Origin: Xylanibacter ruminicola 23
Lineage (GTDB): Bacteria; Bacteroidota; Bacteroidia; Bacteroidales; Bacteroidaceae
DNA: 32,000 nucleotides
Direction: 5' to 3'
Assembly (NCBI RefSeq): GCF_000025925.1
Contig: NC_014033.1
Location: 270,001 to 302,000 of the forward strand
Of this stretch, positions 4,309 through 30,129 are shown one piece after another. The notes under the pieces were generated by a model, which saw nothing but the letters and a program-made list of their open reading frames with translations, was not told the DNA's origin and did no database searches. Numbering within the stretch: the stretch's first letter is position 1; each line of letters opens with the position of its first letter. The position numbers and the translations under genes are program-made.

Positions 4309-4391
4309 GGCACGAATTTCGCGAATTTTCGCGAATTATTATCGTTTCGCACCAATATTATTATTTCGTGTTAATTCGTGTAATTCGTGCC
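4309..4391. repeat. Palindromic intergenic element, CACGAATT dialect
   Basis: GGCACGAATTTCGCGAATTTTCGCGAATT...TTCGTGTTAATTCGTGTAATTCGTGCC, with terminal inverted repeats GGCACGAATT/AATTCGTGCC and tandem (C/A)(G/C)CGAATT words. It fills the fmt-ClC gap. Confidence 0.9.
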
Positions 4392-6215: not shown

Positions 6216-6306
6216 GGCACGGATTAACACGGCTCTCTTTTAGAGAAACGCTGCTTTTTGCGCAGCCAGCCGTGTCTTTTTATAAAAAATCCGTGTAATC
6301 CGTGCC
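6216..6306 (+). repeat. 91-nt nested-palindrome intergenic element (copy R2)
   Basis: GGCACGGATTAACACGGCTCTCTTTTAGAGAAACGCTGCTTTTTGCGCAGCCAGCCGTGTCTTTT..ATCCGTGTAATCCGTGCC. The first 65 nt are identical to copy 6913-7003. Confidence 0.95.
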
Positions 6307-6912: not shown

Positions 6913-7003
6913 GGCACGGATTAACACGGCTCTCTTTTAGAGAAACGCTGCTTTTTGCGCAGCCAGCCGTGTCTTTTATTAAAAAGCCGTGTTAATCCGT
7001 GCC
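6913..7003 (+). repeat. 91-nt nested-palindrome intergenic element (copy R3, best-formed)
   Basis: Perfect 19-nt terminal inverted repeats GGCACGGATTAACACGGCT / AGCCGTGTTAATCCGTGCC, and a central hairpin GCTGC-TTTTTGC-GCAGC. Confidence 0.95.
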
Positions 7004-7009
7004 TATCAT

Positions 7010-8599
7010 TTAGAATTCTGATGTAAAGTGGAACTTGATGTTTTCGAAGTCCTGCTGGGCCATGCTCAGCACGTAGCCGCTATCGGCCAGGAACACGTCG
7101 CGGCCGTCCTTATCCTTAGCCATGTACTGGTACTTACGCTTCTTAAAGTTCTCCAACTCCTGTGGATCGTCGCTCTCAATCCAGCAGGCCTTATACAGAT
7201 GTACGGGCTCCCAACGGCACTTGGCGTTGTACTCGTTCTCCAGACGATACTGGATAACTTCGAACTGCAGCTGTCCTACGGTTCCGATAATTTTTCTATT
7301 ATTAAACTGGTTTACGAACAACTGTGCCACACCCTCGTCCATCAGCTGGTCGATACCCTTCTGCAGCTGCTTGGCCTTCATGGGGTCGTCGTTCTCGATA
7401 TACTTAAACAACTCGGGCGAGAACGATGGCAGTCCGCGGAAGTGCAGTTTCTCGCCCTCGGTCAGTGTGTCGCCAATCTTAAACATACCGCCTGTATCGG
7501 GCAGACCTACGATATCGCCTGGCCAAGCCTCGTCGATGGTGCTCTTACGCTGCGCCATAAACTGTGTGGGGCTTGAGAAACGCATCGTTTTACCCTGGCG
7601 CACGTGCAGGTAAGGCTGGTTGCGCTGGAACTTACCAGAGCATACCTTACAGAATGCGATACACGAGCGGTGGTTGGGGTCGATATTAGCGGTAATCTTA
7701 AAGATAAATCCTGTAAACTTGGGCTCCTCGGGCTGTACATCGCGCTCCTCGGCCTTGGTGGGGCGGGGCGATGGTGCAATCTCAACAAAGCAGTTAAGCA
7801 GCTCCTGCACACCAAAGTTGTTCAGGGCCGATCCGAAGAATACGGGGGCCACTTCGGCCTCGCGATAGGTCTCTACATCGAACTCGGGGTAAACACCATC
7901 CACCAGCTCCAGGTCCTCGCGCAGCTTGGCGGCGTTCTCCTCGCCTACACGCTGGTCGAGCTCCTCGCTGTCGATGTCAACCTCTACCTTATCTGTTACA
8001 CGCTGCTTGTCGGGAGTAAACAGGTCGAGCTTCTGTTCGTAGATATTGTAAACGCCCTTGAACTTGGCACCCTGATTGATAGGCCAAGACAGTGGGCGAA
8101 CCTTGATTTCGAGTTCCTGCTCCAGTTCGTCGAGCAAGTCGAAGGGATCGCGACCTTCGCGGTCCATCTTATTGATAAAGATGATAACGGGTGTTTTGCG
8201 CATGCGGCACACCGTCATCAGTTTGCGGGTCTGAGTCTCAACACCTTTGGCACCATCCACTACGATAATGGCTGAATCTACAGCGGTGAGTGTGCGGAAG
8301 GTATCCTCAGCAAAGTCCTGGTGACCTGGGGTGTCCAGAATGTTCACCTTGTATTCGATGTCCTTGCCATCGGGGGTGTAATCGAACTCCATCACAGAGG
8401 TCGATACAGAGATACCACGCTGCTTCTCGATATCCATCCAGTCGCTGGTGGCAGTTTTCTTAATCTTGTTGCTTTTTACAGCTCCAGCCACCTGTATCTG
8501 TCCACCGAACAGCAGAAACTTCTCTGTCAGTGTAGTCTTACCCGCGTCCGGGTGCGAAATGATGGCAAATGTACGTCTTCTTTCTATTTCCTGATTCAT
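7010..8599 (-). CDS. prfC: Peptide chain release factor 3 (GTPase)
   Basis: 529 aa: [32 protein letters not shown]. Confidence 0.95.
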
Positions 8600-8614
8600 A
8601 TATTCTTTTTTTTA

Positions 8615-8653
8615 GGCACGGATTAACACGGCTCTTTTTAAAAGAGACGCGGC
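8615..8653 (+). repeat. Left half of split element (copy R4)
   Basis: GGCACGGATTAACACGGCTCTTTTTAAAAGAGACGCGGC, ending directly at the stop codon of the GxxExxY ORF (8654). Confidence 0.9.
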
Positions 8654-9040
8654 TTATTCTTCGTCCGTTTGCCCTTCTTTTGTTAATATCTTACGTCTAA
8701 CTTTCACTGAGCGACCAAAATTGATCAATAGTCCCAACTCCATATGGGTGGCTGCCAAGTAGTTTATTAGCTGCCATTCATGCTCTGGTCGTAAATCAGT
8801 TACAGCCTTTAATTCTATAATAATCTTATCTTCAACTACCATGTCGGCAACATAGTGCCCAACTTTATCGCCTTTATAGTAAACATCTAATGGTTTTTGA
8901 CATTCACACTTCAGGCCCATTCTACTAAGCTCTTTATACAAAGCGTTACCATACACGGCCTCGAGGAAACCAAATTTTAACTCATCATGTACAAGATGAG
9001 CTGCATGTACAATTTTCTTTGATAAATCTTCGTATAACAT
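8654..9040 (-). CDS. GxxExxY protein (PD-(D/E)XK nuclease-like superfamily)
   Basis: 128 aa with the signature GFLEAVY plus DMVVEDKIIIELK (D...ExK-like). My hand count is 145 G+C in 387 nt (about 37%), against roughly 50-65% in sampled flanking stretches. The ORF is bounded at both ends by the arms of a split repeat element. Confidence 0.9.
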   Translation of the reverse strand: MLYEDLSKKIVHAAHLVHDELKFGFLEAVYGNALYKELSRMGLKCECQKPLDVYYKGDKVGHYVADMVVEDKIIIELKAVTDLRPEHEWQLINYLAATHMELGLLINFGRSVKVRRKILTKEGQTDEE

Positions 9041-9083
9041 AGCCGTGTCCTTTTTTTAAAAAAAAGCCGTGTTAATCCGTGCC
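9041..9083 (+). repeat. Right half of split element (copy R4)
   Basis: AGCCGTGTCCTTTTTTTAAAAAAAAGCCGTGTTAATCCGTGCC, beginning directly after the GxxExxY start codon (9040). It overlaps the last codons of rfbD. Confidence 0.9.
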
Positions 9084-9948: not shown

Positions 9949-10041
9949 GGCACGGATTTACGCGGCTCTCTTTTAGAGAAACACTGCTTTTTTTGCGCAG
10001 CCAGCCGTGTCTTTTTATTAAAAGCCGTGTAAATCCGTGCC
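9949..10041 (+). repeat. 93-nt nested-palindrome intergenic element (copy R5)
   Basis: GGCACGGATTTACGCGGCTCTCTTTTAGAGAAACACTGCTTTTTTTGCGCAGCCAGCCGTGTCTTTTTATTAAAAGCCGTGTAAATCCGTGCC. Both arms carry the ATTTAC/GTAAAT variant. Confidence 0.95.
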
Positions 10042-12597: not shown

Positions 12598-14139
12598 ATG
12601 GAGAAACTTATTGAATTATATACCCAATGGAGGGGAGCTGAGCCGGCTAATGTTCAGCAGATCCCCGGGGGCGGTAGTAACCGCACTTACTTCCGTTTGA
12701 CCGACAAGCAGGGACAGAGTGTGATAGGCGTGATAGGCACCAGTCGCGACGAGGACCATGCGTTTATCTATCTTACCAAGCATTTTTCGCGATTGCAGAT
12801 GCCGGTGCCAAAGATTCTGGCTGCCAGCGACGACCAGCTGCGATACCTGCAAACCGACTTGGGTAGCATGTCGCTTTTCGACGCCATCCGTGGTGGTCGC
12901 GAAGCGGGCGGACGTTATACCCTGAAAGAGCAGGAACTGCTGCGCCGCACCATACGCGAACTGCCTAAAATGCAGATGCAGGGGGCTCGCGATCTGGATT
13001 TCGAGAACTGCTACCCACAGGCGGAGTTTGACGTGGATAGCGTGCTGTTCGACCTGAACTACTTTAAGTACTGTTTCCTGAAGGCTACGGAGATTGATTT
13101 CCACGAGTTGAAGCTGGAGGCCGACTTCCGACTGATGGCGAAGGATCTGACTTCGGAACAGAGCGATTCGTTTCTGTATCGCGACTTCCAGGCTCGCAAC
13201 GTGATGTTAGACCACGATGGCAATCCTTGGTTTATTGATTACCAAGGCGGCCGAAAAGGTCCGTTTTATTACGATGTGGCTTCGTTCTTGTGGCAGGCCT
13301 CGGCTAAGTATCCACACAAGCTGCGCCGTGAACTGGTGTACGAGTACTACAACTCGCTGAAGAATTACATCGAGGTGCCCACGGTGCGCCACTTTGTAAA
13401 TCGTCTGTCGCTGTTTGTGCTGTTCCGTACCTTGCAGGTGCTGGGCGCTTACGGATTCCGCGGCTATTTTGAGCAGAAAAAGCATTTTATTGAGAGCATT
13501 CCACCTGCCATACAGAACCTTCGCGAGTTGTTGGCAAGCAGCACGCCTTGGCATTATCCATACTTGATGGAGATTCTGCAGAAGCTGACAGAGCTGCCAC
13601 AGTTCCAGCAGATTGAGACGGTGGCCAGTCGTGCCGATGGTTATAAGACGACCGATTTGAACCCTTATAAGGCCCATCCACAGGACGGACCGGCTACGTT
13701 CTCGAAGTACGATGCGCAGGGACCGCTGGTGGTTAAGGTGTTCAGCTTCTCGTATCGCAACGGCATACCTGAGGACGAGAGCGGTAACGGTGGTGGCTAT
13801 GTATTCGACTGCCGTAGCACGCACAACCCCGGCCGTTATGAGCCTTACAAAAAGCTGACGGGACTGGATGAACCGGTAATACGATTCCTGGAGGATGATG
13901 GTGAGATACTAACGTTCCTGGATTCGGTTTATAAGTTGGCCGATGCGCATGTGCGCCGCTACATTCAGCGTGGCTTTACCAGTCTGATGTTCTCGTTCGG
14001 ATGTACAGGTGGTCAGCACCGTTCGGTTTATTCGGCTCAGCACTTAGCCGAGCATATCCACGAAAAGTTTGGTATCGAGGTTCGCGTAGAACATCGCGAA
14101 CAGAAAATCAAACAAACCTTCGAAGCAAAGAAGATTTAG
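12598..14139 (+). CDS. Fusion protein: AmgK/APH-like sugar kinase domain + RapZ C-terminal-like domain
   Basis: The N-terminal half has the kinase catalytic loop YRDFQARNVMLDHDGNPWFIDYQG. The C-terminal half has FSFSYRNGIP...YVFDCRSTHNPGRYEPYKKLTGLDEPVIRFL...FGCTGGQHRSVYSAQHLAEHI, which matches the RapZ C-terminal domain as I remember it (FDVRFLPNP...MTGLDKPV...GCTGGKHRSVY). Start set at the ATG at 12598 (MEKLIELY), 8 nt after a TATCTTTG box. Confidence 0.8.
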   Translation: MEKLIELYTQWRGAEPANVQQIPGGGSNRTYFRLTDKQGQSVIGVIGTSRDEDHAFIYLTKHFSRLQMPVPKILAASDDQLRYLQTDLGSMSLFDAIRGGREAGGRYTLKEQELLRRTIRELPKMQMQGARDLDFENCYPQAEFDVDSVLFDLNYFKYCFLKATEIDFHELKLEADFRLMAKDLTSEQSDSFLYRDFQARNVMLDHDGNPWFIDYQGGRKGPFYYDVASFLWQASAKYPHKLRRELVYEYYNSLKNYIEVPTVRHFVNRLSLFVLFRTLQVLGAYGFRGYFEQKKHFIESIPPAIQNLRELLASSTPWHYPYLMEILQKLTELPQFQQIETVASRADGYKTTDLNPYKAHPQDGPATFSKYDAQGPLVVKVFSFSYRNGIPEDESGNGGGYVFDCRSTHNPGRYEPYKKLTGLDEPVIRFLEDDGEILTFLDSVYKLADAHVRRYIQRGFTSLMFSFGCTGGQHRSVYSAQHLAEHIHEKFGIEVRVEHREQKIKQTFEAKKI

Positions 14140-14196
14140 GCACGGATTCTTGGACGAGCCAAGCGGCAAAGCCGAGCGACACGGATTACACGGATT
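14139..14196 (+). repeat. Double-hairpin core module flanked by CACGGATT words
   Basis: GGCACGGATT-CTTGGACGAGCCAAG-CGGCAAAGCCG-AGCGA-CACGGATT-ACACGGATT. Its first bases supply the TAG stop (14137-14139) of the preceding gene. Confidence 0.9.
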
Positions 14197-14203
14197 TTTT
14201 TTA

Positions 14204-14303
14204 GGCACGGATTTACGCGGCTTTTTTTATAAAAAAGGACACGGCTTTAGCATTGCAACTATAGCCGTGTCTTTAATTTATTAAAGCCGTGTTAATCCGT
14301 GCC
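14204..14303 (+). repeat. 100-nt nested-palindrome intergenic element (copy R6)
   Basis: GGCACGGATTTACGCGGCT...GGACACGGCT-TTAGCATTGCAACTAT-AGCCGTGTC...AGCCGTGTTAATCCGTGCC. The inner GACACGGCT/AGCCGTGTC hairpin is intact. Confidence 0.95.
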
Positions 14304-20446: not shown

Positions 20447-21142
20447 ATGGAAAAATTAAAAGACAATCAGAGGATCAGTGTGCTGTTTATGTTTTACGGC
20501 ATACTGTTTTGCGTGTGCCTGATTACGGCAAACGTATTGGAGACAAAACAGATTTCGTTTGGACCTGCTAACATGACGGCTGGACTCATTGTGTTCCCCG
20601 TAAGTTACATCATCAACGATGTGGTTTGCGAGGTGTGGGGATACCGTCGTACGCGTCTGCTCATCTGGCTGGGCTTTGCCATGAACTTTATGTTTGTGGT
20701 GTTTGGTGCCATCGCCGACTGGATTCCTGGTGCCTCGTACTGGCATGGCGAGGAGGGATTCCATCAGATCTTCGGATTGGCACCTCGTATCGCCGGTGCA
20801 TCGTTCCTGGCTTTCCTGGCAGGATCGTTTATGAATGCCTACGTGATGAGTAAGATGAAGTTGAGCTCGAACGGTAAGAATTTCTCGGCCCGTGCCGTGA
20901 TGAGTACTGTCTGGGGTGAGCTTACCGACTCAATCATCTTCTTCCCCCTGGCGCTGGGTGGTGTTATCCCCTGGGAGGAGATGCCATCGCTGGTTATCAC
21001 ACAGGTAACACTGAAGACGGTTTACGAAATCATTGCACTTCCTGTAACCATCCGTGTGGTAAACTTTACCAAGAAGCACGACCACGAGGATGTGTTCGAC
21101 AAGGATGTAACGTACAACATCTTCAAGGTCAAGGAACTTTAA
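20447..21142 (+). CDS. yhhQ: Queuosine precursor transporter (YhhQ/DUF165 family)
   Basis: Multi-TM: VFPVSYIINDVVCEVWGY..., TDSIIFFPLA. Start set at the ATG at 20447 (MEKLKD). The ORF-track TTG at 20417 lies inside the riboswitch-like hairpin. Confidence 0.85.
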   Translation: MEKLKDNQRISVLFMFYGILFCVCLITANVLETKQISFGPANMTAGLIVFPVSYIINDVVCEVWGYRRTRLLIWLGFAMNFMFVVFGAIADWIPGASYWHGEEGFHQIFGLAPRIAGASFLAFLAGSFMNAYVMSKMKLSSNGKNFSARAVMSTVWGELTDSIIFFPLALGGVIPWEEMPSLVITQVTLKTVYEIIALPVTIRVVNFTKKHDHEDVFDKDVTYNIFKVKEL

Positions 21143-21219
21143 TGTTTAATGTTTCGCTCGGCTTTGCCGCTTGGCATCGCCAAGAATGTTTAATGTTTAA
21201 TCTTTAATGTTTAATGTAT
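21141..21219 (-). repeat. Double-hairpin core module flanked by AATGTTT heptamer words
   Basis: (AATGTTT)x2 - TCGCTCGGCTTTGCCGCTTGGCATCGCCAAG (21154-21184, reverse complement of the 14149-14179 core; the only differences are in one hairpin loop) - AATGTTT AATGTTT AATCTTT AATGTTT AATGTAT. It fills the whole yhhQ-queF gap. Confidence 0.9.
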
Positions 21220-21220
21220 T

Positions 21221-21682
21221 ATGAACAGAGAAGTAGAAGGTTTGCAGGCACTCGGCAAGAAGACTGAGTACAAGAGCGATTATGCACCCGAGGTGCTTGA
21301 GACGTTTATGAACAAGCATCCTGAGAATGATTACTGGGTACAGTTTAACTGTCCTGAGTTTACATCGCTGTGTCCAATCACGGGTCAGCCTGATTTTGCT
21401 GAGATCAAGATTATGTATATTCCGGGTGAGAAGATGGTTGAATCTAAGAGTTTGAAGCTCTATCTGTTCAGCTTCCGTAACCATGGTGATTTCCACGAGG
21501 ATTGTGTGAATGTGATAATGAAGGACTTGGTGCGCCTGATGGATCCCAAGTACATCGAGGTAATCGGTCTTTTCACTCCCCGTGGTGGTATCAGCATTTA
21601 CCCCTATGCCAACTACGGTCGCCCCGGCACCAAATTCGAAGCCCTCGCCGAACAAAGACTGATGAACCACACGTTTAAGTAG
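21221..21682 (+). CDS. queF: NADPH-dependent 7-cyano-7-deazaguanine (preQ0) reductase, type I
   Basis: 153 aa: [43 protein letters not shown]. Confidence 0.95.
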
Positions 21683-21695
21683 TCCTCGCGTGGGT

Positions 21696-22225
21696 CGAAA
21701 AAGAAAGTAGTCCCAAAAACGTCCTGGCTCGGAGGCCGGATGTCCGATTATCGTAATCATTCGGAGAACTCGCTTCGCTCAAACAGCTCCTCATGTCGAT
21801 TTGCTTGTCTCGCTCACGCGATACAAGAATCGAAAATGATTCCGATAATAGTACATCCTATAAATACCTCCTCGTGCGGAATGTTTTTGGGATTACTTTC
21901 TTTTTCTCTAATTTCTTTGTCCTCGCACTTCTTCGTTGGGATAAAACGTTCGAAAACATTCTTGGCTGTGCCAAGCGCTTCGCGATTACCGCACTTCGCG
22001 CTCCATGTTTCCTCACTCACTGCGTTCGTTCGAAAACATTCCGCATGAGGAGGTCTTTAGAGGAATGCAAATTCTTTGAATCAACATTGAGTCTCTGATT
22101 GCGGAACGCAATCTGAGCAACGAAATACGAAAAGCTGTTTGAGCGGAGCGAGTTCTTTGAGTGATTTGAAGAATTTGTGTTCCGGCCTCCGAGCTCAGGA
22201 CGTTTTCGCACCTTTCTTTGTTTCG
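21696..22225. repeat. Imperfect foldback / long inverted repeat of about 530 bp (MITE-like)
   Basis: Paired blocks share the constant coordinate sum 43920-43921. 21715-21740 pairs with 22181-22206 (one mismatch in 26). 21765-21788 pairs with 22133-22156 (23/24). 21867-21887 pairs with 22033-22053 (20/21). 21696-21707 pairs with 22212-22225 (2-nt indel). The central part from about 21888 to 22032 is unpaired and contains CTTGGCTGTGCCAAGCG. Confidence 0.85.
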
Positions 22226-24164: not shown

Positions 24165-24178
24165 ACTTTAAGATATTA

Positions 24179-24309
24179 GGCACGGATATGTTTTAGGCAC
24201 GGATTTACACGGCTTTAATTTTATTAAAGACACGGCTGTAGTGAAAAAGCAGTGTTTCTTATAAAAGAGCCGCGTTAATCCGTGCCAATTTATTATTTCC
24301 ATCCGTGCC
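24179..24309 (-). repeat. Nested-palindrome element (copy R7, core 24196-24286 inverted relative to R2-R6) with extra outer GGCACGGAT / ATCCGTGCC words
   Basis: The plus-strand reading matches the reverse complement of copy 6913-7003 block by block (GGCACGGATTTACACGGCTTT..AAAGACACGGCT..AAAAAGCAGTGTTTCT..AAAAGAGCCGCGTTAATCCGTGCC). Confidence 0.9.
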
Positions 24310-27810: not shown

Positions 27811-30075
27811 ATGGCAGAATTACCCCCAATGATAGCCGACCTGGCACTCATCCTGATGGTGGCAGGTGTGGTTACGCTCATATTTAAACGCTTAAAGCAG
27901 CCCCTTGTGCTGGGCTACATCGTGGCAGGTTTCCTGGTTAGTCCTAACATGACCTATACGCCATCGGCTGTTGATATGGCCAACGTACACCTGTGGGCCG
28001 ATATCGGTGTGATGTTCCTGCTGTTCTCGTTGGGATTGGATTTCTCGTTCAAGAAGATTCTTAAGATGGGCGCCTCGCCCGTCATATCCGCTATCACCAT
28101 TATCTTCTGTATGATGATGCTCGGTATCGTGGTGGGCCATGTGTTCGGTTGGGGTAAGATGGACTGCATCTTCCTTGGAGGTATGCTCGCCATGTCGAGT
28201 ACCACCATTATCTATAAAGCTTTCGACGATCTCGGATTGCGCCAGCAGCAGTTTGCCGGCATGGTTATGAGTGTGCTTATACTCGAGGATATCCTGGCTA
28301 TTGTCATGATGGTGATGCTGAGTGCCCTGGCCAGCGGTTCTGATATGGGTGGCGGACAGCTTTTGCAGTCGGTCATGCGTATCGGTTTCTTCCTGATACT
28401 ATGGCTGGTGGTGGGTATCTTTGCCATCCCGCTGTTTTTGCGCCGCGTGCGCCGACTCATCAATAACGAGGTGCTGCTCATCGTAGCCTTAGGCTTGTGT
28501 TGTGCCATGGCGGTGTTCTCAACCAAGGTAGGCTTCAGCTCAGCTTTCGGTGCCTTTATCATGGGTAGCATCCTGGCCGAGACCATCGAGGCCGAGCGTA
28601 TCGAGAAACTCGTCGAGCCTGTTAAGAACCTCTTCGGTGCCGTGTTCTTCGTGTCGGTAGGTATGCTGGTCGATCCAAAGATTCTGGTCGAATATGCCAT
28701 ACCTATTCTCTGCCTGGTACTCACCATTATTGTAGGGCAGAGCGTGTTCGGCACCATCTCGTTTATGTTAGGCGGCCAGTCGCTCAAGTCGGCCATGCGT
28801 TGCGGCTTCTCGATGGCGCAGATTGGTGAGTTCTCGTTCATCATCGCCTCGTTAGGTTTGTCGCTGGGCGTTATTGGCGATTTCCTTTACCCCGTGGTGG
28901 TAGCCGTATCTGTCATCACTACCTTCTTAACCCCTTATATGATTCGTCTGGCCACGCCAGCCTATAATAACCTTGAGAAGCGTTTGCCTGGTAAGCTTAT
29001 CAAGTCGCTTAACCAGTTGGCCATGGGCAATACGCATAGTCAGGAGGAGAGCAAGTGGAAACGCCTGCTCACGCAGATGACCATCAACACCATTGTTTAC
29101 TCCATCCTTTCGTCGGCATCCATTGCCATGATGTTTGCCTTTGTGCTGCCCGTAACCCGCAAAATGCTGCCCGGCTGGGAGCTCCATTGGTATGCCAACG
29201 CCATCACCGGTGTGCTCACCGTGGCACTCATCGCACCATTCCTGCGTGCCATGGTCATGAAGAAGAATCACAGCGAGGAGTGGAAAGCCCTGTGGGCCGA
29301 GAGCAATCGCAACCGTTTGCCATTGTTGTTCACCATCCTGGTGCGTTTCCTCATTGCAGTCAGCTTTATCTTCTACATCTGCAATTTCCTCAGCCGATTC
29401 ACCAATGCCTTGATGATTACCATCGGTTTCGTAGTCATCGTGCTCATCATCCTCTCACGCCGTACCAAGCACCGTAGCATTACACTCGAGCGCCTGTTTA
29501 TCCAGAACCTGCGTTCGCGCGATATCGAGGCCCAGGTGCATGGCAAGAAACGTCCGCTCTACGAGGGCAAGCTGCTCGATCGCGATATCCATATTGCCGA
29601 TTTCACGGTGCCGTTCAACTCCACTTGGATGGGACAGTCATTGTCTCAGCTCAAGCTGGGTACCAAGTATGGTGTGCATGTTAGTAGTATTCTGCGTGGA
29701 GGCCGTCGTATAAACATCCCCGATGGTTATAACATCCTGTTCCCAGGCGATGTACTTCAGGTCATCGGTAGCGACCAGCAGTTCACCGCTTTCCGCGATG
29801 CCATCGAGAACGAGGTGCTGGGTATCGATGTAGATGTAGAGATGCGCGAGATGAAGTTGCGCCAACTCATTATCGGTACCGACAGTCCGTTTGTGGGTCA
29901 GACCCTCATCGAGAGTCGTATCCGCGATCGCTTTAGCTGTATGGTGGTAGGATTAGAAGAGGGAAAGGAAAGTCTCTCCCCCTATAGTCCAAATCGTAAG
30001 TTCCGTGCAGGTGATATCATCTGGGTGGTAGGCGAGCAAGACTCGCTCGACGCCCTCTTTAATATTAAGGATTAA
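27811..30075 (+). CDS. Cation:proton antiporter (CPA2/Kef-like) with two C-terminal RCK_C (TrkA-C) domains
   Basis: 754 aa: about 12 TM helices, then two segments similar to each other (GQSLSQLKL...GDVLQVIG and GQTLIESRIRD...GDIIWVVG). Confidence 0.85.
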   Translation: MAELPPMIADLALILMVAGVVTLIFKRLKQPLVLGYIVAGFLVSPNMTYTPSAVDMANVHLWADIGVMFLLFSLGLDFSFKKILKMGASPVISAITIIFCMMMLGIVVGHVFGWGKMDCIFLGGMLAMSSTTIIYKAFDDLGLRQQQFAGMVMSVLILEDILAIVMMVMLSALASGSDMGGGQLLQSVMRIGFFLILWLVVGIFAIPLFLRRVRRLINNEVLLIVALGLCCAMAVFSTKVGFSSAFGAFIMGSILAETIEAERIEKLVEPVKNLFGAVFFVSVGMLVDPKILVEYAIPILCLVLTIIVGQSVFGTISFMLGGQSLKSAMRCGFSMAQIGEFSFIIASLGLSLGVIGDFLYPVVVAVSVITTFLTPYMIRLATPAYNNLEKRLPGKLIKSLNQLAMGNTHSQEESKWKRLLTQMTINTIVYSILSSASIAMMFAFVLPVTRKMLPGWELHWYANAITGVLTVALIAPFLRAMVMKKNHSEEWKALWAESNRNRLPLLFTILVRFLIAVSFIFYICNFLSRFTNALMITIGFVVIVLIILSRRTKHRSITLERLFIQNLRSRDIEAQVHGKKRPLYEGKLLDRDIHIADFTVPFNSTWMGQSLSQLKLGTKYGVHVSSILRGGRRINIPDGYNILFPGDVLQVIGSDQQFTAFRDAIENEVLGIDVDVEMREMKLRQLIIGTDSPFVGQTLIESRIRDRFSCMVVGLEEGKESLSPYSPNRKFRAGDIIWVVGEQDSLDALFNIKD

Positions 30076-30080
30076 ACATC

Positions 30081-30129
30081 AATCTTTAATGTTTAATGTT
30101 TAATGTTTAATGTTTAATGTTTAAAGATT
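30081..30129. repeat. Heptamer microsatellite (AATGTTT)x5 inside an AATCTTTAA/TTAAAGATT palindrome
   Basis: AATCTTT (AATGTTT)x5 AAAGATT, with perfect units at 30088-30122. It lies between convergent genes and overlaps the pepT stop codon (30121-30123) and its last codons. Confidence 0.95.

Follow-up and report, generated by a model that had tools for sequence, protein, structure and literature searches.

A small gene of the GxxExxY family (PF13366/TIGR04256) in Xylanibacter ruminicola 23, coding for a predicted nuclease of the PD-(D/E)XK type, is located in the loop of a long palindrome between two housekeeping genes, rfbD and prfC, and most of its relatives are likewise flanked by tandem repeat units. 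The DNA considered here is a stretch of 32,000 nucleotides (assembly GCF_000025925.1, contig NC_014033.1, positions 270,001 to 302,000 of the forward strand; hereafter, the window, with positions counted from its first nucleotide). The palindrome together with its gene, referred to below as the cassette, occupies positions 8615–9083 on the minus strand. We put at about one in two the probability that the cassette is a selfish hairpin element similar to a REPtron, i.e., to a gene of a repetitive extragenic palindrome (REP)-associated tyrosine transposase (RAYT) with its cognate repeats. The PD-(D/E)XK protein would bind the repeat units, cut the ends of the element, and help the cassette and, in trans, its MITE-like derivatives (MITE, miniature inverted-repeat transposable element) to spread. 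This interpretation is supported by comparative genomics, with the REPtron serving as an analogy only.

Read in the direction of the gene, the cassette begins with an outer arm at 9065–9083 (GGCACGGATTAACACGGCT) containing two CACGGNT units. It is followed by an A/T spacer at 9050–9064 and an inner arm at 9041–9049 (GACACGGCT), which passes at once into the ATG (9038–9040), a layout recurring in the loci L001 and L005–L007. The open reading frame (ORF) of 128 aa spans 8654–9040, and its stop codon (8654–8656) shares one base with the second inner arm (8646–8654; AGCCGCGTC). Next come an A/T spacer at 8634–8645, which is a small palindrome in itself (CTTTTTAAAAGAG, reading through base 8646), and the second outer arm at 8615–8633 (AGCCGTGTTAATCCGTGCC), an exact reverse complement of 9065–9083. 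On the forward strand, the arms read GGCACGGATTAACACGGCT at 8615–8633, GACGCGGCT at 8646–8654, and AGCCGTGTC at 9041–9049. Each side of the cassette comprises three CACGG(A/C)T units, and no spacer separates the repeat from the ORF at either end; the geometry proposed in the preliminary description of this DNA, made from its letters alone, thus holds to the base. Matches to the outer arm with up to three mismatches number 11 in the window vs. 0.01 expected from shuffled sequences.

An A-rich tail (8600–8614; minus-strand reading TAAAAAAAAGAATAT) is situated between the element and the prfC ATG at 8599. Such tails also follow the gene-less copies described below and are not present at unoccupied sites, so the tail appears to arrive with the element. 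At the opposite end, the first 12 nt of the outer arm (9072–9083) encode the C-terminus of RfbD and its stop codon (...LLGTD*). In the lineages with other arm types, RfbD ends otherwise (...KLDF*, ...QLI*). Partial left ends, e.g., TTTTAGGC and TTAGGCACGAATTAA, accumulate at the end of RfbD (window 9072–9083; L001, L005–L007, and L157–L179), and this pile-up looks like the result of repeated insertion or replacement.

Several familiar types of sequence were considered for this structure. An intrinsic terminator is unlikely, since the hairpin is followed in the direction of transcription by A-rich sequence and not by a U-run. An integron cassette is equally unlikely given the inverted repeats at both sides and no integrase, and the tandem, palindromic units of 9–10 nt make a CRISPR-like array unlikely too. 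A search of the window with Rfam, at both gathering and E-value thresholds, returned nothing relevant and no rRNA.

The protein encoded in the cassette matches PF13366 in Pfam (E = 5.5e-38, 130.4 bits vs. a cut-off of 22) and TIGR04256 in NCBIfam (E = 5.6e-40, 136.3 bits vs. a cut-off of 35). Neither library gives any other match, hence no DDE, serine, tyrosine, or HUH/Y1 transposase. An alignment of 63 sequences shows full or at least 90% conservation of the residues G24, E27, Y30, D66, E76, K78, Q90, and Y94, and in the window protein the GxxExxY motif and the D...ExK core are carried on an alpha-beta-beta-beta-alpha-beta fold. The D...ExK...QxxxY pattern is the motif set of RecB, Cas4, and lambda exonuclease. 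The AlphaFold2 model (predicted local distance difference test score of 91) has a minimal PD-(D/E)XK fold, whereas its Foldseek matches in the PDB are weak (template modeling score, TM, 0.47–0.55). They include Cas4 SSO0001, lambda-type exonucleases, Hjc resolvases, and tRNA-splicing endonucleases, with Cas4, lambda exonuclease, and Hjc being the closest. At a TM of about 0.5, these matches are generic for PD-(D/E)XK proteins, so no specific function can be transferred from them.

A sequence search of the PDB with the protein found no solved homolog, the PADLOC and PHROG models gave no match to it, and tblastn against 50,697 phage records gave none either. The protein does not qualify as a nuclease of the Cas4/RecB type: the cysteines of the iron–sulfur cluster are not conserved across the family (in the 63-sequence alignment only C45 and C47 are kept, and in the Prevotella clade alone), so the four-cysteine cluster is lacking, the window has no cas genes, and the fold matches are weak. 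At the same time, the ratio of nonsynonymous to synonymous substitution rates (dN/dS) is 0.01–0.04, with dS saturated, and the protein is under strong purifying selection. Judging by the conservation of the catalytic residues, the dN/dS, and the structural model, it is predicted to be a working enzyme. The family is large (12,823 clusters at 50% identity) and includes members of 250–290 aa with two tandem GxxExxY domains (P0121–P0125, P0143, and others). No further GxxExxY paralog was found in the window.

The base composition sets this gene apart from its surroundings. Its G+C content is 37.5% (145 of 387 nt, exactly as counted by hand in the preliminary description) vs. 47–54% in the neighboring genes. 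Its G+C content at third codon positions (GC3) is 0.34 vs. 0.64–0.68 in the neighbors and 0.44–0.68 in all the other large ORFs of the window; no other large ORF stands out in this way. The foreign or selfish origin suggested earlier on this ground gains support from the relatives: across 19 loci with the order rfbD–GxxExxY–prfC and the arms in place, GC3 of the GxxExxY gene is 0.24–0.42 in every case vs. 0.52–0.75 in the neighbors, and the cassette tree conflicts with those of the flanking genes.

The association of the gene with repeats is not confined to the window. Around 110 related loci were compared, which range from Bacteroidota to Proteobacteria and Planctomycetota, and most of the genes are flanked by two to four tandem units of 9–10 nt with a CAC(G/A)GAT core, usually inverted. 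In 32 genome loci, collected by a narrow-motif scan with one locus per species, inverted GG(CACGGATTA)n arms enclose nearly every GxxExxY gene, and eight or more independent contexts are represented. The inverted arrays were found, e.g., at sufC–sufD in Parabacteroides and Bacteroides, radA in B. finegoldii, ade–manC in Bernardetia, fabD–fabG in Sphingomonas, on a Treponema replicon, and in an alphaproteobacterial metagenome-assembled genome, where a gene-less CACGGAT hairpin is located nearby. The bracketing of other family members, which the preliminary description had predicted, is seen in nearly all loci of Prevotellaceae/Bacteroidales.

It also extends to environmental sequences, where a scan with a nine-sequence subset of the alignment yielded 80 loci with proteins only about 40–55% identical to that of the window. 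Unbiased counts of 7-mers in these loci revealed a 13–27-fold enrichment of CACGGAT, CACAGAT, and ACAGGAT upstream (sense strand) and a 10–24-fold enrichment of their reverse complements downstream. Tandem repeats of 8–12 nt are present in a flank of 70% of 71 environmental genes vs. 24% of control ORFs (Fisher p = 2.6e-8), and at least five shared inverted 8-mers in 39% vs. 1%, respectively. The commonest layout is that of inverted arrays on both sides ('>>> gene <<<'); in minorities, the gene has a whole hairpin upstream or is flanked by direct repeats. The unit type covaries with the protein type, since the protein identity is 0.617 within the types of unit core vs. 0.552 between them (permutation p ~5e-4). 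An ordinary small gene residing by chance beside unrelated repeats would be another explanation for the structure in the window. It is refuted, with virtually no probability left to it, by the excess of arm matches, the bracketing in the genome loci, and the enrichment of 7-mers and tandem units in the environmental ones; the zero-spacer geometry, moreover, is kept in the orthologs.

GxxExxY genes recur next to sufC in distant phyla, i.e., between sufC and sufD in L028 and L029, and upstream of sufC in L032 (Planctomycetota), with a decayed remnant between sufC and sufD in L036. This recurrence may be a coincidence or reflect a preferred target.

In addition to the cassette, the window harbors gene-less copies of the same element, as had been noted: at least five hairpins match its arms. 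Three of them are on the minus strand, at 6216–6306 (yrdC–clc junction), 6913–7003 (prfC–yrdC), and 9949–10041 (DUF4924–rfbD). They share a 17-nt filler, GGCTGCGCAAAAAGCAG, at the place of the ORF, lack the inner arm on one side, and have kept about 45 nt from one end but about 35 nt from the opposite one. The common filler indicates that these three copies derive from one internally deleted progenitor and not from independent decays. The gene-less copies are accordingly not simply the cassette minus its loop. The copy at 14204–14303 is symmetric, with both inner arms retained (z = -13). Adjoining it on the plus strand, at 14139–14197, is a solo arm of another type, GGCACGGATT-(29 nt)-GACACGGATTACACGGATT, laid out like the left arm of the GxxExxY cassette in L027 (Prevotella sp. 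khp7). A copy at 24196–24286 (plus strand) resides inside the truncated ends (24179–24187 and 24301–24309) of an older one. The hairpin at 4309–4391 (minus strand, fmt–clc junction) is of the GGCACGAATT type, which is the cassette arm type in L014, L016, L019, L020, and L022. All the gene-less hairpins of the window are intergenic and fold with z = -4.5 to -13 relative to shuffles.

The nesting at 24176–24309, with a whole 91-nt hairpin between the truncated ends TTAGGCACGGAT and ATCCGTGCC of the older copy, suggests that insertion may favor existing elements or hairpin centers.

The history of the cassette can be followed at the rfbD–prfC junction of close relatives. Compared with X. ruminicola Ga6B6 (L022), the flanks of the window are 90–100% identical, with PrfC at about 100%. 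The identity drops to 32–82% exactly between 9088 and 8600, where Ga6B6 has a cassette with a protein 71% identical to that of the window and arms of another type (GGCACGAATTTCACGAATTAACACGAATT). In L001 and L007, conversely, the flanks are just about 80% identical, yet the protein is 89–91% identical and the arms are of the window type. This discordance implies that the gene and its arms travel as one unit exchanged at a fixed site. Gene-less alleles of the junction, sampled without bias via 89%-identical RfbD proteins, were found in 23 loci: they have no GxxExxY gene at the junction, and their 35-nt spacer there consists of a solo left arm (TTTTAGGCACGGATTAA...GACGCGGCT), with the prfC ATG coming next. 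Thus, the junction is polymorphic, as foreseen in the preliminary description, with cassettes of type A, B, or C or a gene-less remnant.

The gene-less copies are polymorphic as well. The DUF4924–rfbD junction is filled in the window, L003, L008, L016, and L027, contains a footprint (TTATTAGGCACG|AAG) in L014, and is empty in L022, L021, L005, L007, and L011. At the prfC–yrdC junction, an element is present in the window, L027, and L010, L011 has a solo arm, and seven other loci have nothing; the window copy is missing from L022, L021, L014, L005, L007, L008, and L019. The copy at yrdC–clc is missing from L001. Different types of element entered the same junctions independently. The expected correlation between the gene and the repeats was observed, too: in each of the five genomes that allowed the comparison, a small sample, the arm type of gene-less copies is that of the genome's own cassette. 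No further elements were seen in 88.7 kb from the clade with the gene-less junction, while the cassette-bearing loci contain about 41 extra arm ends in 87.5 kb, a contrast that is weak and only suggestive since this clade is a single lineage. Other families of gene-less hairpins and solo arms occur at the same junctions (L019:1475–1614 and L016 downstream of prfC), with the units GACAACT and ATCATTT, the latter being of the PF05635 type considered below; several families of elements have their hot spots at these operon junctions.

If the cassette is a selfish element, its life cycle might be pictured as follows. The AT-rich gene in the loop of the palindrome would make a self-contained hairpin cassette. 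The gene has the same orientation as rfbD upstream and prfC downstream, and this position between co-directional housekeeping genes makes its expression by read-through probable. The encoded protein would be a minimal nuclease with the motif set E...D...ExK...QxxxY of the RecB/Cas4 type. It may bind the units, spaced by approximately one helical turn, on duplex DNA or on an extruded or single-stranded hairpin; a double-stranded DNA, single-stranded DNA, or RNA substrate can be envisaged. By cutting at the ends of the element, the protein, as the putative driver of mobility, would cause the cassette and, in trans, gene-less copies to be copied or transferred, and host repair or replication would finish the event. 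The hairpins of about 91 nt would then be internally deleted, non-autonomous copies of the same element that spread to other operon junctions just past stop codons, bringing an A-rich leader for the next gene. The gene and its arms would evolve as one cognate pair, similar to RAYT and REP.

A number of observations weigh against this scenario. To our knowledge, PD-(D/E)XK enzymes form no covalent intermediate, and the joining of strands would therefore need host functions. Across the three comparisons of filled and empty junctions, no consistent target-site duplication was found, with a possible ATGA duplication at one site. The gene-bearing copy is found at one junction only across the rfbD–prfC-syntenic loci of Prevotellaceae, with synonymous sites saturated. 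Recent mobility is visible for the gene-less copies only, so the gene resembles a long-resident or domesticated one more than an active transposase. Most of the Prevotella loci are orthologous and hence do not represent independent samples. About 30% of the environmental loci have no clear units, and in L032, L117, and L119 the flanking repeats are direct instead of inverted. The family itself is listed as being of unknown function (PMC3424549). Finally, the mechanism hypothesized at the core of the preliminary description, with the protein binding, cutting, or propagating the hairpins, is complicated by analogous cassettes whose protein has no nuclease fold.

The latter cassettes carry genes of PF05635, annotated as "23S rRNA-intervening sequence protein" and coding for a four-helix bundle. 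In L019 (490–925), near the GxxExxY locus, a PF05635 gene of 119 aa (E 2.5e-29) lies between LysE and DUF4924 in the same '>>> gene <<<' layout, with arms of TGGATAA units. The layout recurs around other PF05635 genes (L128–L150 and L151–L156), always with a period of 7 nt (AAATGAY, GGAGAGY, TTAGTGA, GTCGGAR, GATGAAG). In Prevotella, such cassettes occupy the clc–fmt, LysE–DUF4924, and MFS–GH10 junctions; they are also present in Treponema, Bernardetia, Nostoc, Chondrinema, and Chlorohelix, and they too have solo or gene-less arms. Thus, at least two unrelated families of small proteins live in hairpin cassettes built of tandem units, and a nuclease is not obviously required for this lifestyle.

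In L154 (plasmid pNPUN01 of Nostoc punctiforme), the arms of the four-helix-bundle gene NPUN_RS34315 are arrays of the GTCGGAR heptamer, which resemble the short tandemly repeated heptamers (STRR) known for a long time from heterocystous cyanobacteria. STRR and PF05635 genes may be linked. The window has no PF05635 gene; four to five tandem copies of the heptamer AATGTTT, which has the period of PF05635-type arms, are found at 30058–30129, at the end of the gene at 27811–30075, with a shorter copy near 21140 (21128–21157).

The existence of PF05635 cassettes in these lineages is an argument for regarding the palindromes as MITE- or REP-like carriers moved by an enzyme encoded elsewhere or by host replication and recombination, with the ORFs as passengers or accessory genes, e.g., regulators or protectors. 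The same view would accommodate gene-less and solo arms on viral contigs having no such gene, the stationary state of the gene-bearing copy while gene-less copies move, and the nesting of one element within the ends of another, suggestive of the hairpins themselves being targets. Still, one shared pattern of repeats would be expected if a generic carrier or some universal factor of the host were at work, whereas each family has its own unit period and core (9–10 nt with CAC(G/A)GAT for GxxExxY vs. 7 nt for PF05635). The unit core is kept across phyla in spite of the modest protein identity in the environmental loci, and the arm type switches along with the protein allele on an almost identical host background. 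When about 450 kb of loci were searched without bias for genes enclosed by inverted 13-mers, only host genes between neighboring elements and one PF05635 cassette emerged; no other type of gene was found inside CACGGAT-type arms. We therefore consider a carrier of this kind doubtful. The family-specific pattern of repeats, as seen in the sequences, argues that each protein may recognize its own units. A broader proposal, offered tentatively, is that PF13366 with its palindromes of 9–10-nt units represents an unrecognized, phylum-spanning class of mobile hairpin cassettes and PF05635 with 7-nt units a sister class. Each protein of about 120 aa would recognize its own units and drive or license the spread of itself and its MITE-like derivatives into operon junctions.

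Alternatively, the hairpins could be beneficial for the host as punctuation between cistrons (mRNA stabilizers, insulators, translation leaders, or chromosome-organizing sites), with the GxxExxY protein as a resident factor inherited mostly vertically, like RAYTs. The very strong purifying selection, the size of the family, and the residence of the gene at a single junction with saturated dS are what would be expected from a domesticated system. The same is true for the strictly intergenic location of the elements and for the orientation of all five asymmetric copies with transcription, each providing an A-rich leader ahead of the next ATG. On the other hand, the low GC3 in 19 of 19 loci, the replacement of alleles along with the conflict between the cassette phylogeny and the flanks, the patchy presence at orthologous junctions, and the dispensability of the gene in a whole clade keeping only the solo arm are hard to reconcile with it. 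Domestication is thus judged unlikely, and the selfish cassette is preferred.

The arms might also operate at the level of RNA. In this case, they would pair in the polycistronic transcript, and RNase III or the GxxExxY protein as an RNA endonuclease would cut the stem, free the mRNA of the ORF, and uncouple the flanking cistrons, the repeats being RNA sites. The upstream neighbor is co-oriented with the GxxExxY gene in 48 of 52 loci, which fits expression by read-through, and no promoter of its own was identified for the gene at 8654–9040. The arms form very stable stems (z = -7 to -13), and tRNA-splicing endonucleases are among the weak fold matches. The location of the ORF in the loop is also like that of 23S rRNA intervening sequences with PF05635 ORFs, for which the present analysis confirms the family identity only. 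At the same time, the E, D, ExK, and QxxxY motifs together with the best-matching folds indicate a DNA nuclease. The RNA stem accounts for neither the tandem units nor the copying of gene-less forms to new loci, and the arms match no Rfam family. Such a role for the repeats appears highly unlikely.

The selfish hairpin cassette can be compared with several known systems. Like a REPtron, consisting of RAYT and REPs or REPINs (REP doublets forming hairpins), it features a small gene between inverted copies of a palindromic repeat and many gene-less intergenic copies. Further parallels are the cognate gene and repeat types within a genome (in the five genomes of the small sample mentioned above) and a stationary gene copy accompanied by dynamic short ones. 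The parallel drawn in the preliminary description is therefore valid for the inverted cognate repeats and the dispersed gene-less copies, but not for the enzyme or the repeat itself. The REPtron enzyme is an HUH/Y1 transposase similar to that of IS200/IS605, while that of the cassette is a PD-(D/E)XK nuclease; the REP is a short hairpin with a GTAG-type 5' tetranucleotide, while the cassette arms are tandem 9–10-nt units with the CAC(G/A)GAT core and no GTAG. Moreover, the cassette gene sits in the loop with zero spacer, and the cassette is horizontally exchanged and has a foreign base composition.

As in MITEs with an autonomous parent (e.g., Correia elements and those derived from IS630), the short forms have terminal inverted repeats and look like internal deletions of a gene-bearing parent, with about 45 nt shared at one of the ends and about 35 nt at the other (the ends were aligned by eye), and they are intergenic, numerous, and polymorphic between strains. 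In contrast to MITEs, the cassette has no DDE, serine, or tyrosine transposase, its parent gene codes for only about 125 aa, and its arms are made of tandem sub-repeats. Very many MITEs have been reported in Bacteroidota by generic surveys (bioRxiv 10.1101/2024.01.18.576219), and the gene-less copies are probably counted among them.

In the ORF-bearing 23S rRNA intervening sequences, terminal inverted repeats pair into a long stem, and the ORF lies in its loop. With those carrying a PF05635 ("S23p") ORF, the cassette shares a small ORF in such a loop, the location within a host transcript, and the sporadic distribution. It differs from them in its host, which is an intergenic spacer of mRNA (rfbD/prfC), in its PF13366 ORF, and in the period of 9–10 instead of 7 nt. 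Thus, the cassette is a gene with cognate dispersed palindromes that falls outside the defining features of a REPtron, a MITE parent, and an rRNA intervening sequence.

Free-standing genes of PD-(D/E)XK homing endonucleases, of which I-Ssp6803I is an example, are similar in being small selfish nuclease ORFs at one fixed site, exchanged there between lineages. An unoccupied (solo-arm) allele exists in the case of the cassette, and the solo-arm remnants suggest a cycle of gain, degeneration, and loss; the homing endonuclease genes, however, have neither bracketing palindromic arrays of units nor dispersed gene-less derivatives. Finally, IS200/IS605 and other single-strand transposons recognizing hairpins resemble the cassette by the likely recognition of sub-terminal hairpins and by their hairpin-rich intergenic spots. 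The cassette nevertheless lacks TnpA(Y1) and TnpB and forms one palindrome as a whole, not two distinct end hairpins. Full-text literature searches with the family names and arm sequences found no description of the association between GxxExxY genes and palindromes; for GxxExxY/PF13366, the arms, MITEs of Bacteroidetes and Prevotella, and intervening-sequence or four-helix-bundle proteins, they returned only statements that the function is unknown, PCR primers, and a generic census of MITEs.

Several consequences are worth considering. PF13366 is a large family with no assigned function, and its link to palindromic arrays of its own leads to the hypothesis of a sequence-specific minimal nuclease with defined sites. 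If correct, this would mean a selfish element built on a PD-(D/E)XK enzyme instead of a transposase, and would name the source of abundant intergenic hairpins in gut and rumen Bacteroidota. Such hairpins affect genome assembly, annotation (stop codons and leaders being given to host genes), and operon expression. Likewise, a protein of 125 aa with programmable-looking variants of a 7-nt site would be of possible interest as a tool. Should the two-class interpretation prove true, a function would be found for two very large families, and many of the "MITEs" of Bacteroidota would be explained. It might explain the cyanobacterial arrays of heptamer repeats as well, and also the ORF-bearing 23S rRNA intervening sequences, which connects the cassettes with the long-unexplained ORFs of the latter.

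Apart from the CACGGAT elements, and unrelated to them, the window contains a cluster of inverted repeats at 21168–22183. It includes a pair of 24 nt with 96% identity (21697/21883) and a pair of 71 nt with 70% identity (21817/22033) and overlaps two ORFs with a low GC3 (0.44–0.48).

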